Below, one piece after another: positions 2,341-63,084 of a DNA stretch of 64,000 nt. The DNA is from an uncultured virus (IMG/VR IMGVR_UViG_3300037993_000206). Taxonomy: Duplodnaviria; Heunggongvirae; Uroviricota; Caudoviricetes. The notes beneath the pieces were generated by a model. That model made no database searches. It was not told where the DNA came from and saw only the letters and a list, made by a program, of their open reading frames with translations. Position 1 is the first letter of the stretch. Each line of letters begins with the position of its first letter. A program made the position numbers and the translations under genes. Location: IMG/VR virus record IMGVR_UViG_3300037993_000206; one strand, written 5' to 3'.

Positions 2341-3645
2341 TTAAATCCTGAAAGCACTTATTTTACGATACCGCCACATATCACCAATCGTTAATTTATG
2401 CACTCTAGCCATGAATAAACCGTAAATCAATTTAGCCATAGACCTGTAAAATATATTAGGCGGTAATTTAATCAACTGTTTAATGAGAGGTAAAAGAAAC
2501 GGATACTTAGTTGCAATAAAGAAAAAGGTCTGCAAGTTAATAATCTCTTTTGATAAATGCTTCATCGGTTTATAAATACTGTCCGTTAGTTCAACCCCAT
2601 CTGGATAATATTTTGCAATATCGTAATATTTATAGGGTGTCATAAAAGAACATGATGTCTGGTCGGCCTTTATTTCAGCGTTCAATTTCACAGTCTCTAA
2701 CGCATCCTCTAATGACTCGGTTGGAATACCAACGATATTATATGTCTTTAGTCCTAGACCAAACGACTTGATTAACCTTCCTGCCTTGATAATATCTTCA
2801 TTTCCTTTATCGCTCTTATTTAATATTCGTTGTCTGATTAATGGAACACCTGATTCAATCCCCATTTCTAGGCTATAACAACCCGCATCTTTGAGCATTT
2901 CAAGTAATTCTTTATTGATAATATCAAAACGTGTATTACAGATAAAGGGCAACTTTATTTCATTTTTATAAAGGTCTAAAAACTTTTTTAACCACTCTAA
3001 ATTCAAAGTAAAAACATCATCCGTGAAACTAACCGTTTCTAATCCATACCTTGCCCTGACACTACCAATCTCACCTATCACTTGATCCGGCGTTCTGCGC
3101 CTTACTCTAGGCGTATCGGGATACATTTTATGTGACATATGACCAAAGCAAAAAGAACATGAGAACGGGCAACCCCTTGCACTTAAAAATTGTTTGGATG
3201 ATGCCTTACCTAAATGCTCATACTTATAATAGATTGACCTATCTTGTTGGGGTAACAACGTAATATCTCTGACTGGTTCATAATATAAAATCCCATTATC
3301 TTTACTTAACAAATCTGGTTCAAGATAATCAGCTTCACCACAAACTATAAAATCCGCTTTTAAGGTATCAGGGTAAAGTGTAGCATGTGGCCCACCCATT
3401 ACGGTCTTAACTTTTGGAAGTTCTTTTTTAACTTCACTCGCAAATTGTTGTACCCATAAATGTTCGCCCGTAATCACTGGGAATAAAACGAAATCTGGTT
3501 GATACTTTTTAATATATTCTAGCGGTCGTTTCTCGTAATCAGTAAGAATCAAATCAACATCATTTCCCATTTGTTTGAGCATAGCGGAGATATTTTGACA
3601 ACCATGCCACGCCATACCATTTCGTTGTACAAAAATATATCTCAT
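2341..3645 (-). CDS. Cobalamin-binding radical SAM enzyme (true start probably MRYIFVQ at 3645)
   Basis: MGGPHAT B12-domain motif, RGCPFSCSFC (CxxxCxxC), FTDDVF, GIESG; ATGA overlap with upstream gene. Confidence 0.9.
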   Translation of the reverse strand: MRYIFVQRNGMAWHGCQNISAMLKQMGNDVDLILTDYEKRPLEYIKKYQPDFVLFPVITGEHLWVQQFASEVKKELPKVKTVMGGPHATLYPDTLKADFIVCGEADYLEPDLLSKDNGILYYEPVRDITLLPQQDRSIYYKYEHLGKASSKQFLSARGCPFSCSFCFGHMSHKMYPDTPRVRRRTPDQVIGEIGSVRARYGLETVSFTDDVFTLNLEWLKKFLDLYKNEIKLPFICNTRFDIINKELLEMLKDAGCYSLEMGIESGVPLIRQRILNKSDKGNEDIIKAGRLIKSFGLGLKTYNIVGIPTESLEDALETVKLNAEIKADQTSCSFMTPYKYYDIAKYYPDGVELTDSIYKPMKHLSKEIINLQTFFFIATKYPFLLPLIKQLIKLPPNIFYRSMAKLIYGLFMARVHKLTIGDMWRYRKISAFRI

Positions 3646-4538
3646 GCTCTCATCCTCACTATTAAATATACTCCCATCAAAACAATAATGGGAACAATAT
3701 AATAAATCCGATTCTTTAATCCTTTGGGTTCTTGAATTAAACCAACAACTAATACTACTTGAATAATCGCCAACACTACCTTGCTTGACCTTGCCAATAA
3801 ATACCACAACCAATTCATAGGAACATGGCGTACCCACTCCGAATTACTGAAAGACATATACCACAGCAACCAATAATGTCCGAAATGATACCAAACAACC
3901 CACGCTAAAATAAATACAGAACATAACCCTGACAAGATAGCAACCCATTTACTTATTAAACGGTAATTATTCTTAGCGTAAAAACAAAATAGCATCGCAA
4001 ATGGAATTACCATAAATGGGTGTGGTCGCCAAACTAAAATCTCATTATAAAGTAAATCACTTACTTTAAACCATTGATGATAATAACTTGTCCATGAGCA
4101 AACTTGATAAATAATTTCCCAAAAACCAACGGAAGCAAAAATCGCCAATGAACCTAAGAACCATGCCCGTTGATTACCTATCTTATTCTTAGTTAAATCC
4201 ATTGTTAAGAGAAACAACAAAACCAAAACGCCTTGCGTAGTGAAAGACCCAATACGTGGAATGTGCATTCCTAAAACATCATCAGACACCCACGAAACTA
4301 ATAACGCAAATAACGCTATAAACCCTAACCAATTCCATATTTTAGGATTTAAAAATTTCCATCCGACCCAACTAGAAGTATACTCATAAACCACAGCACC
4401 TAATAAAATCGCTATTGGAAACCAAAACTGATAGTCTGTAAATAACGAAATATTAGAGCTAATTTCATTAGGTTCAACAGGTACGAAACAAACCACTAAC
4501 CCCCAACATATAGCGATAATCCATAGTGCCTTTCGCAC
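3642..4538 (-). CDS. Multi-pass membrane protein, paralog of 8334-9203
   Basis: Several hydrophobic segments; shared GxWExxYQ and late LxxxSKV motifs. Confidence 0.7.
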   Translation of the reverse strand: MRKALWIIAICWGLVVCFVPVEPNEISSNISLFTDYQFWFPIAILLGAVVYEYTSSWVGWKFLNPKIWNWLGFIALFALLVSWVSDDVLGMHIPRIGSFTTQGVLVLLFLLTMDLTKNKIGNQRAWFLGSLAIFASVGFWEIIYQVCSWTSYYHQWFKVSDLLYNEILVWRPHPFMVIPFAMLFCFYAKNNYRLISKWVAILSGLCSVFILAWVVWYHFGHYWLLWYMSFSNSEWVRHVPMNWLWYLLARSSKVVLAIIQVVLVVGLIQEPKGLKNRIYYIVPIIVLMGVYLIVRMRA

Positions 4539-5981
4539 CTATCTTTTTACCAATCCTTTTGCTTTAATCCCTAATTTAATATCAACTGGCACACCAAAAT
4601 ATTTATGATTAAATCTCCATTTAGCTACAGGTTGATAAAGTTTAAACAATCCTTTCATATAAAGAGGAATAGACAAATCATCTATTTTACGGTCTAAGAA
4701 GTAATTGCACCAGTTACTACCGATAATATCTTTGTTCCCAATCTGCCAGGGAAGATTCTCATTATCCACACCATAATTAATATAACCCTCTAATTCTTGA
4801 GGCGGTTTATAACCCAACTCTATGCAACGTGGTTCTAATCCTGAATGAGGATATGGAGAATAAGTCCCAATATTCATAATTTTTGCCATTGGGTTTTCTT
4901 TTAACAAACGGGAGACTAAATTAAGTGTGTCATAAAAATCTGTTTTTCTTTCATCAGGGAAACCCACAATAAAGTAATATGAAGGGATAATTTCAGCTTC
5001 TTTTAAATTCTGATTGACTTGCAAAACCTCACTGACTTTAATCGGTTTATTAATCATCTGTAAAATTCTTTCACTTCCAGATTCAACTCCGATATTAAGT
5101 TGTCGGCAACCTGACTTTTTTAATAGTTTCAGATAGTCTTTGTCCATATTAACAACGCTACGAATTGTAACCCCTTGAATAGACCATTGGAGAATATTAA
5201 TATACATAAATTCAATCATAGATTGCGCTCTATCAATGTCTATGAAAAACTCATCATCAATAAACCAGAACGAATCTATATCATACTTTTTGTGTAGTCG
5301 CATAACTCTTTCTTTTGCACGTTGTAACGATAAAGGTCGCCAACTATGATGCAAATATGGATTGAAACAGAATCGACATTTATACGGACAGCCCCTTGAT
5401 AATTCAACATCTATTGTTGGAAATTCAAATCTGTAAGGCATGTAATTAAACAGTTGACCTTTAGTGTAATAATCGTATATCGGTTCATTTTGTTCATCTA
5501 ATTTAACTTGCTCGTAGGGTATCTTATTACCTTGTTTTGTCCAAATGCCAGCAATTCCATCTACCGATTGTTTATTGGCAATCGCCCTGACTAAATTAGG
5601 TAAAGCCCTTTCACCATCCCCTTGAATCAAGTAATCAATTAAGGAATGCTTAATAGTAATTTCGGGCATTATACTACCTTGTGACCCACCCCATACTGTA
5701 GGAACGTCTGAATTATCTTTGACGAATTTACAAATCTCTAACGCATACTTAATTTGTTCTCCTAGCATGGCAGTTGTACAAACACAAATCGGTTTCTTTA
5801 CTAATTCAATTAACAATTCTTGTTTCCAATTCGGATTACGCCGTTGGTCAAGCATTTTAATTTCAAATTCAGGTCTAAGATTACAAGCAGCAGTTGCTAA
5901 TGATAAAGGAAATGCAGACCTATCTTTAATCTGGTCAAGACTACCTACTATACTTGAAATTAAAACTACTGTATTACTCAT
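4539..5981 (-). CDS. Cobalamin-binding radical SAM enzyme
   Basis: VWGG, GDGE, SRGCPYKCRFC, FIDDEFF, GVESGS motifs. Confidence 0.9.
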   Translation of the reverse strand: MSNTVVLISSIVGSLDQIKDRSAFPLSLATAACNLRPEFEIKMLDQRRNPNWKQELLIELVKKPICVCTTAMLGEQIKYALEICKFVKDNSDVPTVWGGSQGSIMPEITIKHSLIDYLIQGDGERALPNLVRAIANKQSVDGIAGIWTKQGNKIPYEQVKLDEQNEPIYDYYTKGQLFNYMPYRFEFPTIDVELSRGCPYKCRFCFNPYLHHSWRPLSLQRAKERVMRLHKKYDIDSFWFIDDEFFIDIDRAQSMIEFMYINILQWSIQGVTIRSVVNMDKDYLKLLKKSGCRQLNIGVESGSERILQMINKPIKVSEVLQVNQNLKEAEIIPSYYFIVGFPDERKTDFYDTLNLVSRLLKENPMAKIMNIGTYSPYPHSGLEPRCIELGYKPPQELEGYINYGVDNENLPWQIGNKDIIGSNWCNYFLDRKIDDLSIPLYMKGLFKLYQPVAKWRFNHKYFGVPVDIKLGIKAKGLVKR

Positions 5982-11260: not shown

Positions 11261-11479
11261 TTATCTACCGCCATATTTATTTTGAAGATACTTTTTAAAT
11301 GGAATTATATTACGAACAACTGTTTTACCACCATCTTCTATATATTCTTCCGAATCTTTAAACTCCTCACTATAACAAGTACAAACTCGCAATTCTTTAT
11401 CGTATAAATGCCCACACGTTGTACAAATTAAATCTGATTTAGATATTGGTTGCATTAAAACAAAGTTACAATTGCTCAT
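11261..11479 (-). CDS. Small Cys-rich hypothetical protein
   Basis: CTTC and CTC motifs. Confidence 0.6.
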   Translation of the reverse strand: MSNCNFVLMQPISKSDLICTTCGHLYDKELRVCTCYSEEFKDSEEYIEDGGKTVVRNIIPFKKYLQNKYGGR

Positions 11480-11629
11480 TTAATGTACATGAGCCTTTTC
11501 TTTAAATAAAGCATCTTTAAATTTTTCTTCGTCAAAGTTTCCTGCTTTTATGTGTTGAAGGGCTTTTTCACCTAATATGTCAAATGTACATCTTGATTTA
11601 TCATCTTCGTAATCATAGACAAATTTAAA
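11480..11629 (-). pseudogene. Orphan 3' tail (49 codons) of a diverged allele of gene 12928-13302; its first ~20 nt are the predicted TnpB guide
   Basis: Translates FKFVYDYEDDKSRCTFDILGEKALQHIKAGNFDEEKFKDALFKEKAHVH*, 29/49 identical by hand to the C-terminus of 12928-13302; its stop abuts the next ATG. Confidence 0.85.
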
Positions 11630-11760
11630 CCGTTCCATAAGACTTACCCTTATTATCTAAGTAGTGCTTACTTCCTACTTCATCGTGGACAGCCTCTAAT
11701 TGTTGAGGACTTACACCCACTCCATAGGCGTTAATTCCCGAAGAACTTTCGGTATTTAAT
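11610..11760 (-). ncRNA. Predicted omegaRNA of tnpB1 (scaffold ending ...GGAACGG at 11630, guide 11629-11610)
   Basis: Overlaps tnpB 3' end; similar to the equivalent region of tnpB2; IS607-like AACGG end; 5' boundary approximate. Confidence 0.65.
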
Positions 11761-12905
11761 ATCTTAATTCCACATTCACGAATGTTTTTGGCTGCATTTT
11801 CATCACGCTCATTGATTGCCCCACAACTCAAACAAACCCACGTTCTATCACTTAATTTAAGGTCTTTATTTACTGTACCACACGAATTACACTTTTTAGA
11901 ACTAGGTTCAAATCGTGGGATAACGACTAACTTAGACCCGTACCACTTTGTTTTATATTCTAACATACGTCTAAATGTACCCCACCCTTCATCGCCTATC
12001 GACCTTGCCAAATGATGATTATGTACCATGCCTTTTACGTTTAAAATTTCGATACAAATAACTGACTTGGTTTTCGCCAGTTTTGTTGATTCTTTTGCTA
12101 AAAAGTCCTTACGAATGTTCTTTATTTTACGATAAGCTCTGACTAATGCTAATTGAGCCTTCTTTTTATTCTTTGAACCTTTCTTCTTTTTGGATAATTG
12201 GTGATGTAGACGTTTAACTCTATCAATCCGTTTACGTAAGGGTTTAGGGGAAACTAACTCATAGGTTTCAGTTCCATTTGAAACCGTACCAAAGGTTTTT
12301 ATTCCTATATCAATTCCAATAACATCACCTTGAATTGGTCGAGGATTAGGTCTTTCGACTTCAACACATAAGGAACAAAACCACCTATCAGCATCACGAC
12401 TGACAGTTGCACTTAATATTCGACCATTTATTTTGGAAGTTGATTCCTTAGATTTAATAAAACCAATTTTAGGAATACGTATATTATTGTCTAACACACG
12501 AATATCATACTTTATACGTTTATCATAACTATTATTTCTTACTCTAAAGGAATCATGCACACCTTTTTTCTTAAACTTAGGAACCCCAATTTTATTGTCG
12601 TGATATTTTATCCTTCTAGTTAGATGAGAATAAGATTCCCTTAAATCTCTCAATCGTTCTTCTACAATACTTTTAGGAACTAATTGCAACCAACTATATT
12701 CATTTCTTTTTAATAAATCCAACTCTTTATTTTGATTAAAGCTAGTTGTAAATCTAGCCTTTCCACTATTTGTCTTATATAATTCTAACCTTTTCGATAA
12801 AGCCCAATTCCAAACAAACCTAGATACACCACAACACTTAATCAATTTAGTAATCTGTTTGTCATTTGGATTCAATTCATACCGAAATATTTGATTAATC
12901 AACAT
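11625..12905 (-). CDS. tnpB: IS607-type RNA-guided nuclease TnpB (copy 1), no transposase adjacent
   Basis: N-terminal HTH (RFVWNWAL), RuvC-I GIDIG, RuvC-II ICIE, zinc finger CxxC..CxxC, RuvC-III RDENAA. Confidence 0.95.
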   Translation of the reverse strand: MLINQIFRYELNPNDKQITKLIKCCGVSRFVWNWALSKRLELYKTNSGKARFTTSFNQNKELDLLKRNEYSWLQLVPKSIVEERLRDLRESYSHLTRRIKYHDNKIGVPKFKKKGVHDSFRVRNNSYDKRIKYDIRVLDNNIRIPKIGFIKSKESTSKINGRILSATVSRDADRWFCSLCVEVERPNPRPIQGDVIGIDIGIKTFGTVSNGTETYELVSPKPLRKRIDRVKRLHHQLSKKKKGSKNKKKAQLALVRAYRKIKNIRKDFLAKESTKLAKTKSVICIEILNVKGMVHNHHLARSIGDEGWGTFRRMLEYKTKWYGSKLVVIPRFEPSSKKCNSCGTVNKDLKLSDRTWVCLSCGAINERDENAAKNIRECGIKILNTESSSGINAYGVGVSPQQLEAVHDEVGSKHYLDNKGKSYGTV

Positions 12906-12927
12906 ATATTATATATGAGACTTATTA

Positions 12928-13302
12928 TTATCTGCTATCACCTATATGTTTTTCAGAAACAACATAATGAGCATGAGGTTCATTATCGAATAATTTATCT
13001 TTTATTTTATCTTCTTCAAAGTCACCTTTTTTTATATGTTGCAAAGCACCTTCAGCTAATTTATCAAACCTACAAGTAGCATTAGGATTTTCATAATCAT
13101 ACACAAATTTAAACCCAATATCCCATGTAATACCAAATAACTTTAATAAATAAGCTCTTGTATGTACTCTACGTGTTCCGCCATCTGGATATTTAGTGGT
13201 ATCCGAAACCTTAACCCAATAATTAGGGTAATCTATTAAGTCTTGTTCAACAATCTTTCGCATAAATGAGTTAGGAAGTTTCATGGAACGCTTTTTTGTC
13301 AA
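12928..13302 (-). CDS. Hypothetical protein whose 3' half is duplicated (diverged) downstream of tnpB1
   Basis: GGAGGT SD; promoter at 13335-13363; homology to 11480-11629. Confidence 0.8.
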   Translation of the reverse strand: MTKKRSMKLPNSFMRKIVEQDLIDYPNYWVKVSDTTKYPDGGTRRVHTRAYLLKLFGITWDIGFKFVYDYENPNATCRFDKLAEGALQHIKKGDFEEDKIKDKLFDNEPHAHYVVSEKHIGDSR

Positions 13303-13334: not shown

Positions 13335-13363
13335 ATAATATCACATTAACCATTGGTTGTCAA
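13335..13363 (-). promoter_or_regulatory. Sigma70-type promoter TTGACA-N17-TATTAT
   Basis: Motif match. Confidence 0.65.
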
Positions 13364-39457: not shown

Positions 39458-40756
39458 CTATGGATTTAAAATTCTTCCACATTCGACTGTTCTGTAAGAC
39501 TTATCTTTAGTGTTTGGTAGTTGCTTACTTTCTGTTTCACGGTCAATCGCTACCTTATATGGTAGGCTTACATCGACTCCACAGACGTTTATTCCCGATG
39601 AACCACCGGTATTTAATTTATCTAACCCATACTGGTATATATTTTGAGCCGCATTTTCATCCCTATCGTGTTTAACACCACAATTAGGGCAAACCCAATT
39701 TCTATCATCTAATGTCATCCCTTTAAATATATAATGGCAATCACTACACATTTTACTTGAAGGGTAACTTGTAGGGATTAAGATTAATCTTGAACCATAC
39801 CACTTTGTTTTATATTCAAGCATCTCTCTAAATATACCCCAACCTGAATCTGAAATCGACCTACCTAATATTTTATTACGCTTCAGATTTTCCACTTTTA
39901 AATCTTCGATACAAATAACTGACTTGGTTTTCGCCAGTTGACTTGTTAATTTTGCAATAAAATCATGTCTTGTATTCTCAATATGTTTATGACATTTAGA
40001 TAATTGGATATTAGCTTTATGCCTATTATGTGACCCCTTTTTAGTCCTTGCTTGTTGTTGTGCTAATATTTTTAAACGAGATAATTTTTTACTCAATGAC
40101 TTATGATGTTCAACTATATCTATACTATTACCATCATAAGTGGTTAAATAGTTCTTCAAGCCCACATCAATGCCGATGACACCCCCATTGTTTTTAACAT
40201 CGGTAATCTCTTTTGATACCTTTAGACAACAATACCAACGTTCAGATTCTTTTTTAATTGTTACATTTAATATTTTACCACTAAAACTACTTGTATCTTC
40301 TTTAACCCTTACAAATCCAATCTTGGGTAAATGTATTTTATTCCCATCTAGTCTTAATGTACTAGTTTTTCCATCGGCGACATTATTTGTTAATCTAAAG
40401 CTATCCCGTTCACCTTTCTTTTTAAACTTAGGTCTGCCATATTTTTTAGAATGATTTTGGATACGCCTAATTAAATCTGCGTATGCTCTATCTAAATCTT
40501 GTAATGATTCTTGTGCTACACATTTGGACACATCTAACATCCACGGATATTGGTTATACTTTATACTATTTAATTCAATATTCTGTTTATAAAACGAAGT
40601 GAACCGTTCCTTACCTTGTTTAGTATTATAAAGTTCAATCCGTTTCGCTAATCCCCAATTCCATACGAATCTTGAAGTCCCACAAGACTTTATAAACGCA
40701 GTCTTTTGTTTATTATTGGGATTCAATTCATATTTATATGCTTTTAAAACTATCAT
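39458..40756 (-). CDS. tnpB: IS607-type RNA-guided nuclease TnpB (copy 2), no transposase adjacent
   Basis: AYKYEL.P, RFVWN, GIDVG, ICIEDL, CSDC..CPNC, RDENAA. Confidence 0.95.
   Translation of the reverse strand: MIVLKAYKYELNPNNKQKTAFIKSCGTSRFVWNWGLAKRIELYNTKQGKERFTSFYKQNIELNSIKYNQYPWMLDVSKCVAQESLQDLDRAYADLIRRIQNHSKKYGRPKFKKKGERDSFRLTNNVADGKTSTLRLDGNKIHLPKIGFVRVKEDTSSFSGKILNVTIKKESERWYCCLKVSKEITDVKNNGGVIGIDVGLKNYLTTYDGNSIDIVEHHKSLSKKLSRLKILAQQQARTKKGSHNRHKANIQLSKCHKHIENTRHDFIAKLTSQLAKTKSVICIEDLKVENLKRNKILGRSISDSGWGIFREMLEYKTKWYGSRLILIPTSYPSSKMCSDCHYIFKGMTLDDRNWVCPNCGVKHDRDENAAQNIYQYGLDKLNTGGSSGINVCGVDVSLPYKVAIDRETESKQLPNTKDKSYRTVECGRILNP
39467..39615 (-). ncRNA. Predicted omegaRNA of tnpB2 (scaffold ending ...AGAACAG at 39487, guide 39486-39467)
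   Basis: Aligns to tnpB1 end (AAGTCTTACAGAACAG vs AAGTCTTATGGAACGG); 5' boundary approximate. Confidence 0.6.
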
Positions 40757-40757
40757 T

Positions 40758-40889
40758 TTAACTATTCTTCTTTAGATAATCGCTAACCGCTATTCTCACT
40801 AAAACGCTAACATTAACGCATTTTTGTGTTGAAAGTATTTTTAATTTTTCTATTTGTGATTTATCCATGTAATAAGATTGTTTTTTCAT
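40758..40889 (-). CDS. Ribbon-helix-helix (CopG-like) regulator, 43 aa, directly upstream of tnpB2
   Basis: Hand-translated MKKQSYYMDKSQIEKLKILSTQKCVNVSVLVRIAVSDYLKKNS; beta-strand plus S.LVR.AV..YL helix. Confidence 0.7.
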   Translation of the reverse strand: MKKQSYYMDKSQIEKLKILSTQKCVNVSVLVRIAVSDYLKKNS

Positions 40890-40901
40890 ATCCACATCTT
40901 A

Positions 40902-40944: not shown

Positions 40945-40975
40945 AAAAGAAAGGGTGAGTTTTTACGCTCACCCC
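40945..40975 (-). terminator. Intrinsic terminator of the split capsid-like gene
   Basis: GGGTGAG-loop-CTCACCC followed by TTTCTTTT, 20 nt after stop. Confidence 0.75.
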
Positions 40976-40995
40976 ATTCCTTTGCTTCAGAATCG

Positions 40996-42248
40996 TTATT
41001 CCTTAGTACCAGCACCAGCGTTCTTCCACATTCTGTACGTTCTCTTAATCTTTCGATAAAGCGTGGACTATATTTTTATCCATCTTTTTCAGTGGATACA
41101 GCCTCTATAGTCTCTATGCATTGGCGGGTTCATTCCCCGTTTTAGTTTGGGATTACCATGCCCAATTTATTTGGGTTTAGGTTCAACCAAGTTAGGGCTG
41201 AGAGCCATCTAAGATTACTCTTAAATGCGGCCAGTATATCGACCATAACCAATAACGGAACCATAATCACAATTGCCGCAACGTATATGCATCTAATCTT
41301 TCGATATAGTATGGACTATACTTTCATCCGTTTCAGGATGCCCAACCTCTAGTCTCTACACATGATATCTGGTTCACTTCCAGACCTAGCTAGGGATTAC
41401 CATGACCATTATTGGTTTTAGGTTCAACCTAATTTGTTGGGAATTTTTACATCTACGATTACTCGTAAAGTTGGCCTGATTGACCAAAAGGAAAACGGCT
41501 TTGATTACTCATGTCACTCACATTTCTATGAGGTTCGGACTCTATCACATTCCTCTTTAAAGGAATCTCGCCGCCGAGTCTCTCCGCATGGCCTATCTTC
41601 AATTGATAGATTAGTTCGGTGGTTAACTTGCCTATTCTTTATTTTCTAGGTTTAGTTTTCCCCGACTTTGACGAGTTATTCGATGCACATTACTATGCAA
41701 AGACCCTAATCAGTTAAGGTACTACCAGTATCCGTACCGGAAATGCTAAATCTGTAATCTTATCTTTCGATAAGTGTCGGAACATATCATTACCCATCTA
41801 AGTGGGTATCCCCTCTATGTTCTCTTTGCGTTTCACCATTCATTTTGGTGTTTAGTTCTCGATTGGCTTACATCTTTTTAGATGATTAGCGTTCCAAGAG
41901 TTAGGGGGATTTTTCAACCTCAATTACTTGAGGAAGCGGCCATTTCTTTAACCGTCGGAGTTACGAAGTTCGCAATAACCAAGAAAACCACGATTGAAGC
42001 CACCATAGTAGCAAGCGATTTAATTTATGTTCTCCCATTTTTCAATGGATATCGGACTTTTTCTTTATCCTATAAAGGATAGTCCCTGTTAAGTCTCTGC
42101 ACACGCCCGAAGTTCATTTCTTCTGCTTGGCTCAAGATTACCATGACTCATTTCTAAGTTTTAGATTCCCTTGAATTTAAGGACTTCATTGACCTACAAA
42201 TTACTTTGTAGTCGGGCCTCGCTATTCACCCGTCATGAGGTGGCCCAT
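40996..42248 (-). CDS. Intron-split putative major capsid or envelope protein; exons 42248-42228, 42015-41951, 41745-41717, 41507-41483, 41289-41242, 41041-40996; product MGHLMTGLATMVASIVVFLVIANFVTPTVISGTDTGSTLIKAVFLLVIYVAAIVIMVPLLVMVTYRMWKNAGAGTKE (77 aa; 81 aa from ATG 42260)
   Basis: Exons joined at P1 U-G sites and terminal G give 234 nt in one open frame; two hydrophobic helices with a polar linker; own promoter and terminator. Confidence 0.8.
41042..41241 (-). ncRNA. Group I intron 5 (200 nt; alternative 3' splice site at 41033)
   Basis: P1 GGU/GCC, P2 GUAA loop, CCUAA..AUGG receptor, P7 GACUA/UAGUC, P9 GAAA loop. Confidence 0.9.
41290..41482 (-). ncRNA. Group I intron 4 (193 nt; 3' end set by frame)
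   Basis: P1 UUGGU/GCCAA, P2 GUAA, P7 GACUA/UAGUC, P9 GAAA. Confidence 0.9.
41508..41716 (-). ncRNA. Group I intron 3 (209 nt)
   Basis: P1 ACCU/GGGU, P10 UAAUCA/UGAUUA, P7 GACUC/GAGUC, P9 GAAA. Confidence 0.9.
41746..41950 (-). ncRNA. Group I intron 2 (205 nt)
   Basis: P1 CGGU/GCCG, P10 CAUUUC/GAAAUG, P7 GAACA/UGUUC, P9 GAAA. Confidence 0.9.
42016..42227 (-). ncRNA. Group I intron 1 (212 nt)
   Basis: P1 CGGGU/GCCCG, P10 CUUGCUA/UAGCGAG, P7 GACUU/AAGUC, P9 GAAA. Confidence 0.9.
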
Positions 42249-42373
42249 TTTTAGCACCATCGAACCAGTCTGAGCGACCAACCGTGTAGACCTTGTGGTC
42301 TACCGTAAAACATTTGCGAGACATTTTAAGAGTTTCTATAACTCACCTCTCGCATATATTTAACATTATTTTT

Positions 42374-48235: not shown

Positions 48236-50062
48236 TTGGTACAAACTGAAAAACCATTAGGTATAAATAATTATGGAACAATCCCTCATTTAATTGGGAG
48301 TCGAGTTACATTAGGTGATAAACATTGTCACGAAGGTCAAGTTAGAATTGCGACTGAGAAAGTTAGAGATAGACACGATGAAGTAATCGTAACTGAAAAA
48401 GTTGATGGATGTTTAAATTCTCGTGTAGTTGTATTAACTGATAAAGGGAATATCCCAATTGGTAGAATAGTAAACCAAAAATTGCCAGTTTTAGTTGCTT
48501 CGTATAACGAGTCTAATCAAATAATAGAATATAAGAGAATATTAGAATATCATAAGCAACATTATAATGATAAGTGGATTAAGGTGAAAATTACATCGAC
48601 AAAACAAGGCAACCATCATCTTGTTATAACAGTTACACCTAATCATCTATTTTATTGTAAGAGAGGGAATGATATTCTTAATGTCCAAGCTATAGACTTA
48701 AAAATAGGTGATAAAGTATTCCAATCGGCTGATAAAATTGATACAGAAGCGTACCAAATAATATTAGGTGGATTATTAGGGGACTCTAGCTTTTTACATA
48801 CTGGGCCTAATCACCATTACGGGTTTGCATTTGGGCATTCCTTGTCACAAGAGGGGTATTTTATTTATAAAATGAGATTATTGGGAGGTTTAGTTCACGA
48901 AACAACTAGGCAACGTGGAGGTTTTGAAGGTAGTAAGGAAAATCGTAGGGCATATTCTCATCATACGCCATATGTAGATGATTTAATTACAAAAAATTGC
49001 ATCGTGGATGGCAAAAAAGGTATAACGACTCAATGGATAAAGCAACTTAATCCGCTTGGTTTGGCTATTTGGTATATGGATGATGGAAGTTGCAGGTTTA
49101 GTTCTATGCAAAGGCCTAGATTACACATTGCTACTAATGGTTTTCCATTTCATCAAGCTCAGATGTTGAGTGATATGTTACGGTTTAAGTTTAATATAGA
49201 TAATGGGGTATATGATTATAAAGGTGCAACTATAGTCTGTACGGCTGATGGAACAGAGAGATTCTTCGATTTAATTTATCCTTATGTACCCCAATGTATG
49301 AAATATAAATTGCCCCCTAAATATAAGAACAGGGCTTGTGTTCTAGAGGGGTTTTTTGGATTATATAGTTCTCAGTCTTTAATTGAAACTACAGTTGTTG
49401 ATATTGATTATAACGGGAAGGTTTATGAAGGGGAAAATTGGCAGTATGATTTAACAGTGGAAGATAACCATAACTACTTTGCTAGTGATATTTTAGTACA
49501 TAACTCCAATGTCGGGGTTGCATTGCTTAATGGTGAAATTATTGCATTAACTCGTGCTGGATATAAGGCAGAAACTTCACCTTATGAACAACATTGGCAT
49601 TGGAATAATTGGGTCAAATCTAACGAGAGTCGATTTAGATACATATTAAAAGAAGGTGAAAGAATTGTTGGTGAATGGCTTATGCAAGCACATGGTACAA
49701 GATATAATTTAATGCATGAACCATTCGTAGTTTTTGACTTAATGAAAGAACATGATAGAGTTTCTTATAATGAACTTTTAGAAAGAACTTATGGTTTTCA
49801 ACATCCCCATCTTTTATATCGTGGTAATCGACCATTAAGTATTGAAGCGGCTTTGAATATTTTAGGTGAACATGGATATCATGGAGCTATTGATTTAGCA
49901 GAAGGTTGTGTCTGGAAAATTGAAAGAAAAGGTATAGTAGATTTCATGTGTAAATATGTCAGACCTGACAAAGAAGATGGTATTTACTTACCGGAAAAAA
50001 GTAAGTTAGACCCTGTTTGGAATTGGTATCCGTATGGATATATTTTAAAAGAGGATAAATAA
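48236..50062 (+). CDS. ATP-dependent RNA ligase (Rnl2-like) interrupted by an intein
   Basis: Motif I TEKVDG|SN, GEW, FVVFD, EGCVW, KYV. Confidence 0.85.
   Translation: MVQTEKPLGINNYGTIPHLIGSRVTLGDKHCHEGQVRIATEKVRDRHDEVIVTEKVDGCLNSRVVVLTDKGNIPIGRIVNQKLPVLVASYNESNQIIEYKRILEYHKQHYNDKWIKVKITSTKQGNHHLVITVTPNHLFYCKRGNDILNVQAIDLKIGDKVFQSADKIDTEAYQIILGGLLGDSSFLHTGPNHHYGFAFGHSLSQEGYFIYKMRLLGGLVHETTRQRGGFEGSKENRRAYSHHTPYVDDLITKNCIVDGKKGITTQWIKQLNPLGLAIWYMDDGSCRFSSMQRPRLHIATNGFPFHQAQMLSDMLRFKFNIDNGVYDYKGATIVCTADGTERFFDLIYPYVPQCMKYKLPPKYKNRACVLEGFFGLYSSQSLIETTVVDIDYNGKVYEGENWQYDLTVEDNHNYFASDILVHNSNVGVALLNGEIIALTRAGYKAETSPYEQHWHWNNWVKSNESRFRYILKEGERIVGEWLMQAHGTRYNLMHEPFVVFDLMKEHDRVSYNELLERTYGFQHPHLLYRGNRPLSIEAALNILGEHGYHGAIDLAEGCVWKIERKGIVDFMCKYVRPDKEDGIYLPEKSKLDPVWNWYPYGYILKEDK
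48410..49504 (+). mobile_element. Intein (365 aa) with LAGLIDADG homing endonuclease
   Basis: Begins CLNS, TPNH block B, ILGGLLGDSS and LAIWYMDDGS, ends YDLTVEDNHNYFA...VHN followed by Ser. Confidence 0.92.
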
Positions 50063-62488: not shown

Positions 62489-62692
62489 ATGGAACGATGT
62501 GAAATCTGCGGTAAAACAGATGCTATCCAATTCCCAAATATTTATAATTTATCTCTATGTAATTATTGTTTTAACAGTGATAAGTTTAGGAACGAAATTC
62601 ACTCAATTCAAACCAACTGGACATCTCAACGTAACCTTGCTCTTCAATTATTAAAGTGTACATCTATCTCTAATAGAGCGTTTGGAGAATGA
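62489..62692 (+). CDS. Small zinc-finger protein
   Basis: CEIC...CNYC. Confidence 0.6.
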   Translation: MERCEICGKTDAIQFPNIYNLSLCNYCFNSDKFRNEIHSIQTNWTSQRNLALQLLKCTSISNRAFGE

Positions 62693-63084
62693 TTAGAAAC
62701 GAACCACGTAAACCAATTATCGGGCAAAGGAATGGCTTAAATATTCGCCAAATCCTGAGAGCAAAAACCAAACTTAAAGTGCAAAAACCAATCAACAAAA
62801 TCACGCAAAAACAAAGAGAACGGAATAAGAACTGGTCAGAAGTAACTAACAAAAGAATAGAACAAACTGGTAGTCGTTGTGAATGGTGCGGCAAACTCGG
62901 ACAACGAAACGGAACCTTAAATTTTCTGTCTGGTCATCATAAAGTCAAAAGACGATTTGGTAATGATTCAATCGAAAACTGCTACGTGGCACACATGATT
63001 AGCTGTCACCAATTTATAGAGGATAATTCAGTTGATGTTTCAATTTATAAAAATAGACTAGATTGGGAGAAACGAAATGCGTAA
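62689..63084 (+). CDS. HNH-family nuclease-like protein
   Basis: RCEWCG...GHH.VKR...N......CH. Confidence 0.7.
   Translation: MIRNEPRKPIIGQRNGLNIRQILRAKTKLKVQKPINKITQKQRERNKNWSEVTNKRIEQTGSRCEWCGKLGQRNGTLNFLSGHHKVKRRFGNDSIENCYVAHMISCHQFIEDNSVDVSIYKNRLDWEKRNA

Follow-up and report, generated by a model that had tools for sequence, protein, structure and literature searches.

What does a gene for the RNA-guided nuclease TnpB do at the end of a phage gene when neither a transposase nor a splicing element is found with it, and how does the phage gene stay whole? This question is raised by a locus, here called cassette 1, in a 64,000-nucleotide (nt) stretch of DNA from an uncultured virus of the Caudoviricetes (IMG/VR record IMGVR_UViG_3300037993_000206); "the window" below refers to that whole stretch. 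In cassette 1, the gene tnpB1 stands between a complete copy of a small gene, which we call X, and a second, orphan copy of the end of X, and the predicted guide of its omegaRNA is read from the first 20 nt of the orphan copy. We consider the chances even that cassette 1 is a block capable of RNA-guided intronless homing and furnished with a rescue copy of its target gene, and we infer the use of the guide, the cleavage, the homing, the self-immunity and the first formation of the block.

The whole arrangement lies on the minus strand, and all coordinates are those of the window unless another locus is named. Read along that strand, a promoter-like site is followed by X, a gap of 22 nt, tnpB1, the end of the predicted omegaRNA scaffold, the orphan tail of X, and the next gene. 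X (12928-13302) encodes 124 amino acids (aa) from a TTG start, or 118 aa from an ATG at 13284, and tnpB1 (11625-12905) encodes 426 aa and has its stop codon within the flank. The orphan, native-type tail (11480-11629) consists of 49 codons (11629-11483) and a TAA stop (11482-11480). Its counterpart in X, the resident or "spare" tail (12928-13113), has 61 codons and a stop, the first 49 codons being homologous to the orphan tail. A sequence-only reading of the locus had described an intact gene upstream of tnpB and, past an IS607-like right end, a tail with 29 of 49 residues identical to the C terminus of that gene; this layout was borne out at every coordinate, and the alignment runs without a gap from 13113. 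In a protein search of the tail against the upstream region, the E-value was 3.7e-19, compared with 4.5e-5 for the best of three rounds of permuted controls, and the score observed for the 40-nt flank was not attained in any of 300 shuffles.

The predicted omegaRNA scaffold (11630-11800, with an approximate 5' limit) overlaps the 3' end of tnpB1 and ends in GGAACGG, the last GG being 11631-11630. The scaffold end was set independently of the tail because it is where cassette 1 and a second TnpB cassette in the window, cassette 2, stop aligning: the 3' ~170 nt of tnpB1 and tnpB2 align well, and the similarity stops right after AAC(G/A)G. A consensus fold of the two 3' regions has 34 base pairs, 9 of which are changed on both sides between the two sequences compared, and the tnpB1 3' region carries motifs, read by eye, that are common to the omegaRNA regions of its relatives. 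No Rfam family matched the tnpB1 3' RNA at the gathering score. These comparisons give modest support to a conserved omegaRNA scaffold ending at 11630. The homology of the orphan tail to X begins within the GG that closes this scaffold.

TnpB guides come from the DNA that flanks the right end of the element (PMC8612924; here and below, statements drawn from cited papers refer to the portions of their text that were available). Since the scaffold ends at 11630, the guide would be templated by the displaced native end of X, and from its position relative to the scaffold end the guide template is predicted at 11610-11629, where the orphan tail begins. In agreement with the sequence-only reading, these 20 nt match the resident copy (13094-13113) at 19 positions, with a synonymous mismatch at position 12 (GTG versus GTC), and the resident copy is directly preceded by TTGGG. 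At up to three mismatches, the 20-mer occurs at just these two sites in the window, compared with 0.06 expected. The TGGG at 13114-13117 is a candidate transposon-associated motif (TAM). The TnpB of CboIStron, an IS607-family element of Clostridium botulinum, has a measured TAM of TGGG and a scaffold that ends in UCGG (PMC10690162). In cassette 1, the scaffold ends in ACGG, and a right end closing in GG together with TGGG 5' of the resident target copy matches the CboIStron values.

The TnpB1 protein has the features expected of a working nuclease of this type. Pfam domains were found for the helix-turn-helix (HTH_OrfB_IS605, E 4.2e-15), the RuvC domain (OrfB_IS605, E 1.8e-26) and the zinc ribbon (Cas12f1-like_TNB, E 6.9e-22), and TnpB1 matched ISDra2 TnpB (8bf8) over its full length (E 4.6e-69). 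The RuvC residues, which had been thought to look intact, are indeed kept: D199, E286 and D368 lie in conserved motifs aligned to the solved TnpB-type chains, and the two CxxC motifs are intact.

We then considered how X could remain functional. The orphan and resident tails are identical at 106 of 150 nt (71%) and 29 of 49 residues, with no gaps, and the identical bases fall at 37, 41 and 28 of the 50 first, second and third codon positions. Synonymous divergence (dS) is 0.99 and nonsynonymous divergence (dN) 0.29, giving a dN/dS of 0.29. Judged by these substitutions, the two tails are old xenologues, both of which evolved as working genes in separate lineages. A fresh duplication at the time of insertion is excluded since dS between the tails is about 1, and fresh target-site or tandem duplication was rejected on this ground. 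The family of X is small and conserved, with 13 proteins at E ≤0.001 among 1.84 billion representatives. Two of the 13 are encoded by the window (P0001, which is X, and P0008, the orphan-tail open reading frame (ORF)), and the other 11 are uninterrupted proteins of 97 to 132 aa. As to the function of X, no match was found in Pfam, PHROG or the ESM Atlas. The 63-codon head of X joined in frame to the 49-codon orphan tail gives 112 aa, a length typical of the family, and the nearest family member, P0002, is closer to the orphan tail (34 of 46 residues) than to the resident tail (29 of 46), with 38 of 63 residues identical in the head. We infer that the resident tail is the foreign one in this window. 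Because a complete X with a long-diverged ending lies directly upstream of tnpB1, the function of X would be kept without splicing.

The orphan tail may also be translated. It had been described as start-less, and this does not strictly hold: an in-frame ATG (11636-11638, minus strand) inside the end of tnpB1, with AAGGG ~8 nt upstream, opens an ORF that could give a 52-aa orphan-tail peptide. The peptide is a called protein in a public protein set (P0008). The TAA of the tail abuts the ATG of the next gene, a 72-aa ORF at 11261-11479 (TAAATG), confirming the coupling of its start to the tail's stop that had been noticed from the letters, and translation from the ATG at 11638 could keep this translational coupling. 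At the other end of the block, a promoter-like site (13335-13363; TTGACA, 17 nt and TATTAT, with TG), recognized by a consensus match alone at 11 of 12 positions, probably drives X and tnpB1 jointly.

The proposal that cassette 1 does without a splicing element or a transposase was upheld by every search made. No tnpA of either kind was found among the window ORFs of at least 100 aa, and tblastn of the window with three TnpA(S) and three Y1 TnpA queries returned noise (best E 0.62) and no remnant. A whole-window Rfam search gave no Intron_gpI match in 11480-13302, and no integrase or recombinase was found in or near the cassette 1 block. The IS607-like character assigned to the element is plausible: it is supported by the ACGG end, the TGGG motif and the closest TnpBs in IMG/VR, two proteins with 41-42% identity to TnpB1 (loci L022 and L002) whose genes overlap a tnpA with Resolvase and HTH domains (a serine recombinase), but no left end is recognizable in cassette 1. 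Among ORFs upstream of related tnpB genes (53 loci minus 5 redundant ones), 3 of 48 encode serine recombinases and 6 of 48 Y1 transposases. Cassette 1 would be a tnpB-only derivative of an insertion sequence (IS) of the IS607/IS605 type, inserted into X at a TGGG with 49 codons of the gene still to follow.

The layout is found in other phage loci as well. We scanned 80 IMG/VR loci with relatives of TnpB1, together with the two cassettes of the window, comparing the peptides past tnpB with up to 3 kb upstream. A duplicated gene tail was recovered in cassette 1 and in loci L004 and L074 (E 3.7e-19 to 1.8e-33; best of three permuted controls, 4.5e-5), and in all three the omegaRNA region ends where the downstream copy starts. 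The repeat is 37 aa long and 68% identical in L004, and 51 aa long and 94% identical in L074 (1419-1585 and 2971-3137 of that locus), where it extends beyond the stop codon by 11 nt and reaches into a terminator stem. Three other candidates were discarded: L037 (3586-3711 and 5276-5401) has another layout, in which the methyltransferase-like gene downstream is intact and the upstream copy is a diverged N-terminal fragment; L017 (2276-2340 and 5145-5210) has an RNA-like segment of ~65 nt by the end of tnpB that is repeated 1.7 kb upstream; and the match in L050 is low-complexity and acidic.

For L004, both a filled and an empty allele are available. The upstream gene of L004 encodes a PemK/MazF-like toxin, and an IMG/VR search with this gene led to L084, from a sister sample, whose 5,943-nt locus lacks tnpB. 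Starting at the right-end junction, L004 is 96.7% identical to L084 over 794 nt, and the upstream flanks of the two are 95-98% identical. The single mazF-like gene of L084 ends with the orphan tail of L004, while the resident gene of L004 is only 73.6% identical to it. The junction falls exactly at the end of the L004 scaffold, and the predicted L004 guide would match the L084 gene at 19 of 20 positions. In L004, a 2.6-kb tract (2576-5210), containing a 199-aa ORF, the diverged PemK/MazF-like gene, a Y1 tnpA remnant and tnpB, replaces 0.44 kb of L084 (2397-2838). These alignments identify the orphan tail of L004 as native; the foreign part, which arrived with tnpB, includes the entire resident gene. 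The sequence-only reading had supposed that the cassette brings its own diverged 3' half; in cassette 1 an intact X with a diverged tail does lie upstream of tnpB1, but in the analogous L004 the whole gene and ~0.8 kb more are foreign. Likewise, relatives that lack tnpB and end in an orphan-type tail had been called for, and one was found for this related TnpB locus but none for the phage of the window.

Taken together, these observations suggest a mechanism. The inherited block would most likely comprise the resident X, or at least its tail, with tnpB1 and the omegaRNA. In a mixed infection, the TnpB-omegaRNA complex would cut the native-type X (TGGG followed by the guide match) of relatives that do not carry the block, so that the vacant site would be the uninterrupted X of a co-infecting relative. 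During repair, the right homology arm would be provided by the native tail and the downstream DNA, the left arm would come from within X or from the DNA upstream of it, and the block would be copied in, its own copy of X keeping the function. The divergence of the tails (71% nt identity) would protect the block from loss by recombination between the repeats. The block probably originated in an ordinary IS insertion, after which the gene head, the left end and tnpA were replaced by a xenologous gene. The steps have precedents: TnpB cuts the vacant site next to a TAM and the element is copied back by recombination (PMC10690162), and spread of IS605 among plasmid copies that depends on TnpB and not on TnpA has been reported (ref. 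89 as cited in a review, PMC13565253).

We searched widely for relatives without the cassette. The window appears to come from a large peat phage of high novelty. Its genes from 1 to ~47.7 kb are all on the minus strand, and few of its ORFs match anything, the matches being phage-like (phrog_38169 on an intein-bearing RNA ligase; phrog_15773; weak baseplate matches; and HNH). Parts of the stretch are contained in 16 peat or wetland metagenome runs, with no RNA run listed among them. No cassette-free relative was found in INPHARED by blastn, where only a 233-nt tnpB patch in Lak phages matched, in IMG/VR with X, the 136-aa neighbor and the 72-aa neighbor as queries, in JGI metagenome contigs with an alignment of X, or in GTDB genome contigs. 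For the locus search, the X alignment contained 3 sequences, since an alignment of 15 sequences was too divergent. The sole IMG/VR match in the neighbor-gene searches, of 11 residues (L081), was spurious, and a degenerate 23-nt pattern found three loci in the JGI contigs, all encoding unrelated proteins that contain FKFVYDYE by chance. Four further peat runs hold the same phage at ≥99%, and peat contigs span both the right-end junction (11525-11832) and the stop of X with the start of tnpB1 (12791-13107). No joint skipping the cassette was seen in the four runs, which is little informative because the contigs are short and at depth 2-5.

The most serious alternative to homing, which we regard as possible but doubtful, is that cassette 1 is a static scar. 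A complete IS607/IS605 element would have entered X at TGGG, and the damaged gene would have been repaired once by illegitimate recombination with a xenologous X, at the cost of its native head and of the element's left end and tnpA; by now the block would be immobile, and tnpB1 would be a recent relic or be kept to cut co-infecting relatives. Several observations suit this account, and some of them also weigh against homing. L004 retains a C-terminal Y1 tnpA remnant between the resident gene and tnpB (Y1_Tnp, E 2.2e-8), its left junction is ragged and shortens the upstream gene, and its tract includes the extra 199-aa ORF. Such traces are as compatible with a single illegitimate repair of an IS insertion as with a drive, and the remnant implies that such cassettes can arise from ordinary IS copies by deletion or replacement. 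A left end or tnpA remnant, together with a simple tandem duplication, had been named from the outset as what would explain the layout otherwise; the window has none of them, with tails at dS ~1, but the analogue does have the remnant. The same TnpB lineages occur elsewhere as full IS copies, and neither an empty allele nor a second carrier background of this block was found. Finally, the resident copy is not clearly immune. For ISDra2 TnpB, loss of cutting was shown only with double mismatches among positions 1-12, and position 12 is solvent-exposed (PMC10097598); since the resident copy keeps TGGG and its sole mismatch to the guide is at position 12, self-immunity of the carrier is doubtful.

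Other points bear on homing alone, and they too lower its standing. The layout was present in only 3 of 82 loci at the detection limit used. Resident copy and flank are identical over ~40 nt in L074, so that the guide-matching part is not recoded, and recoding is therefore not a general feature. Identities of head and tail, calibrated on 55 pairs of family members, were not decisive on which tail belongs with the head of X. The 19/20 identity is also less telling than it seems. The X family is most conserved at the peptide FKFVYDY, which the matching 20 nt encode with 5 of 7 codons identical, and the window has a G+C content of ~33%; because the peptide is conserved and the codon bias is AT-rich, the identity is unremarkable, and we no longer take it as a sign of selection for guide matching. 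The position of the junction, not the 20-nt identity, is the non-trivial fact.

What speaks against a mere scar is persistence and recurrence. One phage has retained two intact tnpB genes (49% identical), both with a conserved 3' RNA, without any tnpA, and the layout recurs in unrelated genes and phages. Each origin by a single repair would need the rescue of a crippled phage, which would be rare unless the product spreads itself.

It is improbable, in our judgment, that cassette 1 serves RNA-guided regulation or self-targeting, with TnpB1-omegaRNA binding or nicking the resident X and so controlling X or its operon, or triggering recombination between the tails and excision. The carrier genome does hold a TAM-like motif with a near-perfect match, and X and tnpB1 appear to share a promoter. 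However, the RuvC triad of TnpB1 is intact, unlike that of the known nuclease-dead regulators derived from TnpB; the four peat runs contain no cassette-free joint, and the data show neither binding nor excision. We find it about as improbable that the two tails descend from tandem paralogues, that is, from two X genes, the second of which received the IS and then lost its head together with the left end and tnpA. The age of the tails (dS ~1) would fit paralogues, but the 11 family representatives outside the window, which come without genomic context, include no tandem pair, the empty relative L084 has a single gene, and the same special history would be required in every recurrence. Site-specific integration, in which the 20-nt repeats would be the attL and attR cores of a recombinase-integrated element with a replacement gene end, is hardly credible: the block does lie between direct repeats of 19/20 nt, and such elements typically carry replacement gene ends, but we rejected this model because there is no integrase or recombinase in or near the block and none encoded in the window that would act on the 20-mer, and it does not predict that in each of three independent loci a repeat begins precisely where the scaffold ends.

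Returning to the homing block with rescue, we tentatively extend the proposal to phages more generally, which may carry natural RNA-guided "home-and-rescue" drives that pair a transposase-free TnpB with a diverged working copy of the gene and that may also excise and re-home. The same nuclease may pop the block out, because the tails are direct repeats and the carrier copy is weakly protected. If true, this would amount to an excision and re-homing cycle without a transposase.

The second cassette of the window (39458-40895, minus strand) may follow a related principle. It consists of a 45-aa RHH_3 ORF (40758-40895) followed by tnpB2 (39458-40756), whose product is 49% identical to TnpB1. A 2026 preprint reportedly concerns an Arc-like ribbon-helix-helix partner of IS605 TnpB. 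The predicted scaffold ends in ACAG at 39487, the tnpB2 ORF reads 9 codons into the flank, and the cassette includes a terminator and a promoter-like site. Thirteen nucleotides of the flank (39484-39472) recur at 41033-41021, 10 nt past the 3' end of the last of a series of group I introns, a score reached by 2 of 300 shuffles, which suggests the same principle applied to a last exon. The introns lie in a 1.4-kb ORF-free stretch (40950-42330, minus strand) between a 713-aa surface-protein gene and cassette 2. Rfam matches to group I introns were obtained at 42033-42252 (73 bits) and at 41044-41501 (51 bits, spanning two units), and by eye, from motif spacing, the stretch holds about five tandem ribozyme-like units with very short gaps.

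Overall, tnpB1 and tnpB2 are 61.5% identical at the nucleotide level and 49% at the protein level. They share an exact 35-nt stretch (12048-12082 and 39905-39939, minus strand) that encodes LAKTKSVICIE up to the RuvC glutamate and that may be a gene-conversion patch or a shared functional RNA or DNA element. Contigs of one peat run (X3) diverge at 12056-12196, and this branching suggests further tnpB paralogues with the same 35-nt stretch. Elsewhere in the window, an RNA-ligase-like gene with a LAGLIDADG intein (48236-50062, plus strand; Pfam Intein_splicing, LAGLIDADG_2 and RNA_ligase) and an HNH endonuclease-like ORF (62689-63084) were seen. Selfish elements abound in this genome.

Cas12 descends from TnpB, whose only demonstrated natural job, to our knowledge, is keeping its own transposon, or re-installing it, at vacated sites. 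If the homing proposal is true, TnpB has a second, self-sufficient lifestyle in which it travels with a rescue copy of its target gene. Such blocks would be the RNA-guided counterpart of the Seg and Mob endonucleases and of mitochondrial mobile ORFs (mORFs), and a natural version of engineered cleave-and-rescue. They would help to account for the frequency of solitary tnpB genes in large phages, would open a path by which a selfish nuclease becomes a weapon in the competition among phages, and would supply defined triplets of guide, target and TAM for new compact nucleases. L004 and L084 provide a concrete filled and empty allele for the idea. Full-text literature searches brought up, in main texts, no account of a TnpB cassette that carries a spare gene end.

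Several known systems share parts of the arrangement. Synthetic cleave-and-rescue or home-and-rescue drives combine a nuclease against the wild-type allele with a linked, diverged rescue copy, and prophage e14 in icd carries a replacement gene end and leaves an orphan native end behind. Cassette 1 differs from these in being natural, phage-borne and RNA-guided and in having no integrase.

Among TnpB systems, cassette 1 resembles CboIStron: there, as predicted for cassette 1, an omegaRNA overlaps the 3' end of tnpB, the scaffold ends in xCGG, TGGG lies by the target and the guide comes from past the right end, and for CboIStron cutting of the vacant site followed by recombinational copying has been demonstrated (PMC10690162). 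In contrast to CboIStron, cassette 1 has no serine-recombinase tnpA, left end or group I intron, a spare copy at the DNA level would replace splicing, and the vacant site would lie in a co-infecting phage genome rather than on a sister chromosome. ISDra2 TnpB of the IS200/IS605 family (PDB 8bf8, 8exa and 8h1j) is the best natural match of solved structure to TnpB1, with the same catalytic triad and zinc-finger layout; it has a Y1 TnpA and the TAM TTGAT (PMC8612924, PMC10097598), whereas cassette 1 has TTGGG/TGGG and no TnpA.

Intronless homing offers further parallels. Fungal mitochondrial mORFs form "gene hybrids" in atp6, atp9, cox2 and nad3 (PMC3630166, which cites Paquin et al. 1994). Like cassette 1, they place an endonuclease gene and a foreign in-frame C-terminal piece in the host gene and leave the native C terminus downstream, and cassette 1 has this order, with a gene end upstream of the nuclease that is probably foreign here, and is so in L004, and the native end downstream. 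The mORF endonucleases are protein-only enzymes of the LAGLIDADG or GIY-YIG type (PMC3630166), whereas cassette 1 is RNA-guided and the native leftover would be its guide template, which would tie target specificity to the insertion site. The T4 endonucleases SegF, SegB and Mob also resemble the proposal, in that a nuclease gene lies by conserved phage genes, relatives are cut and markers are co-converted, the carrier and target alleles differing by substitutions; they differ in recognizing DNA by protein and in having no orphan remnant of the target (PMC13565253). For the same 2026 review, "transposon non-restorative homing" into phages is possible in theory, and the available part of its text describes no spare-tail layout (PMC13565253). 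Cassette 1 would extend both known TnpB homing and the intronless homing of mORFs and phage endonucleases.

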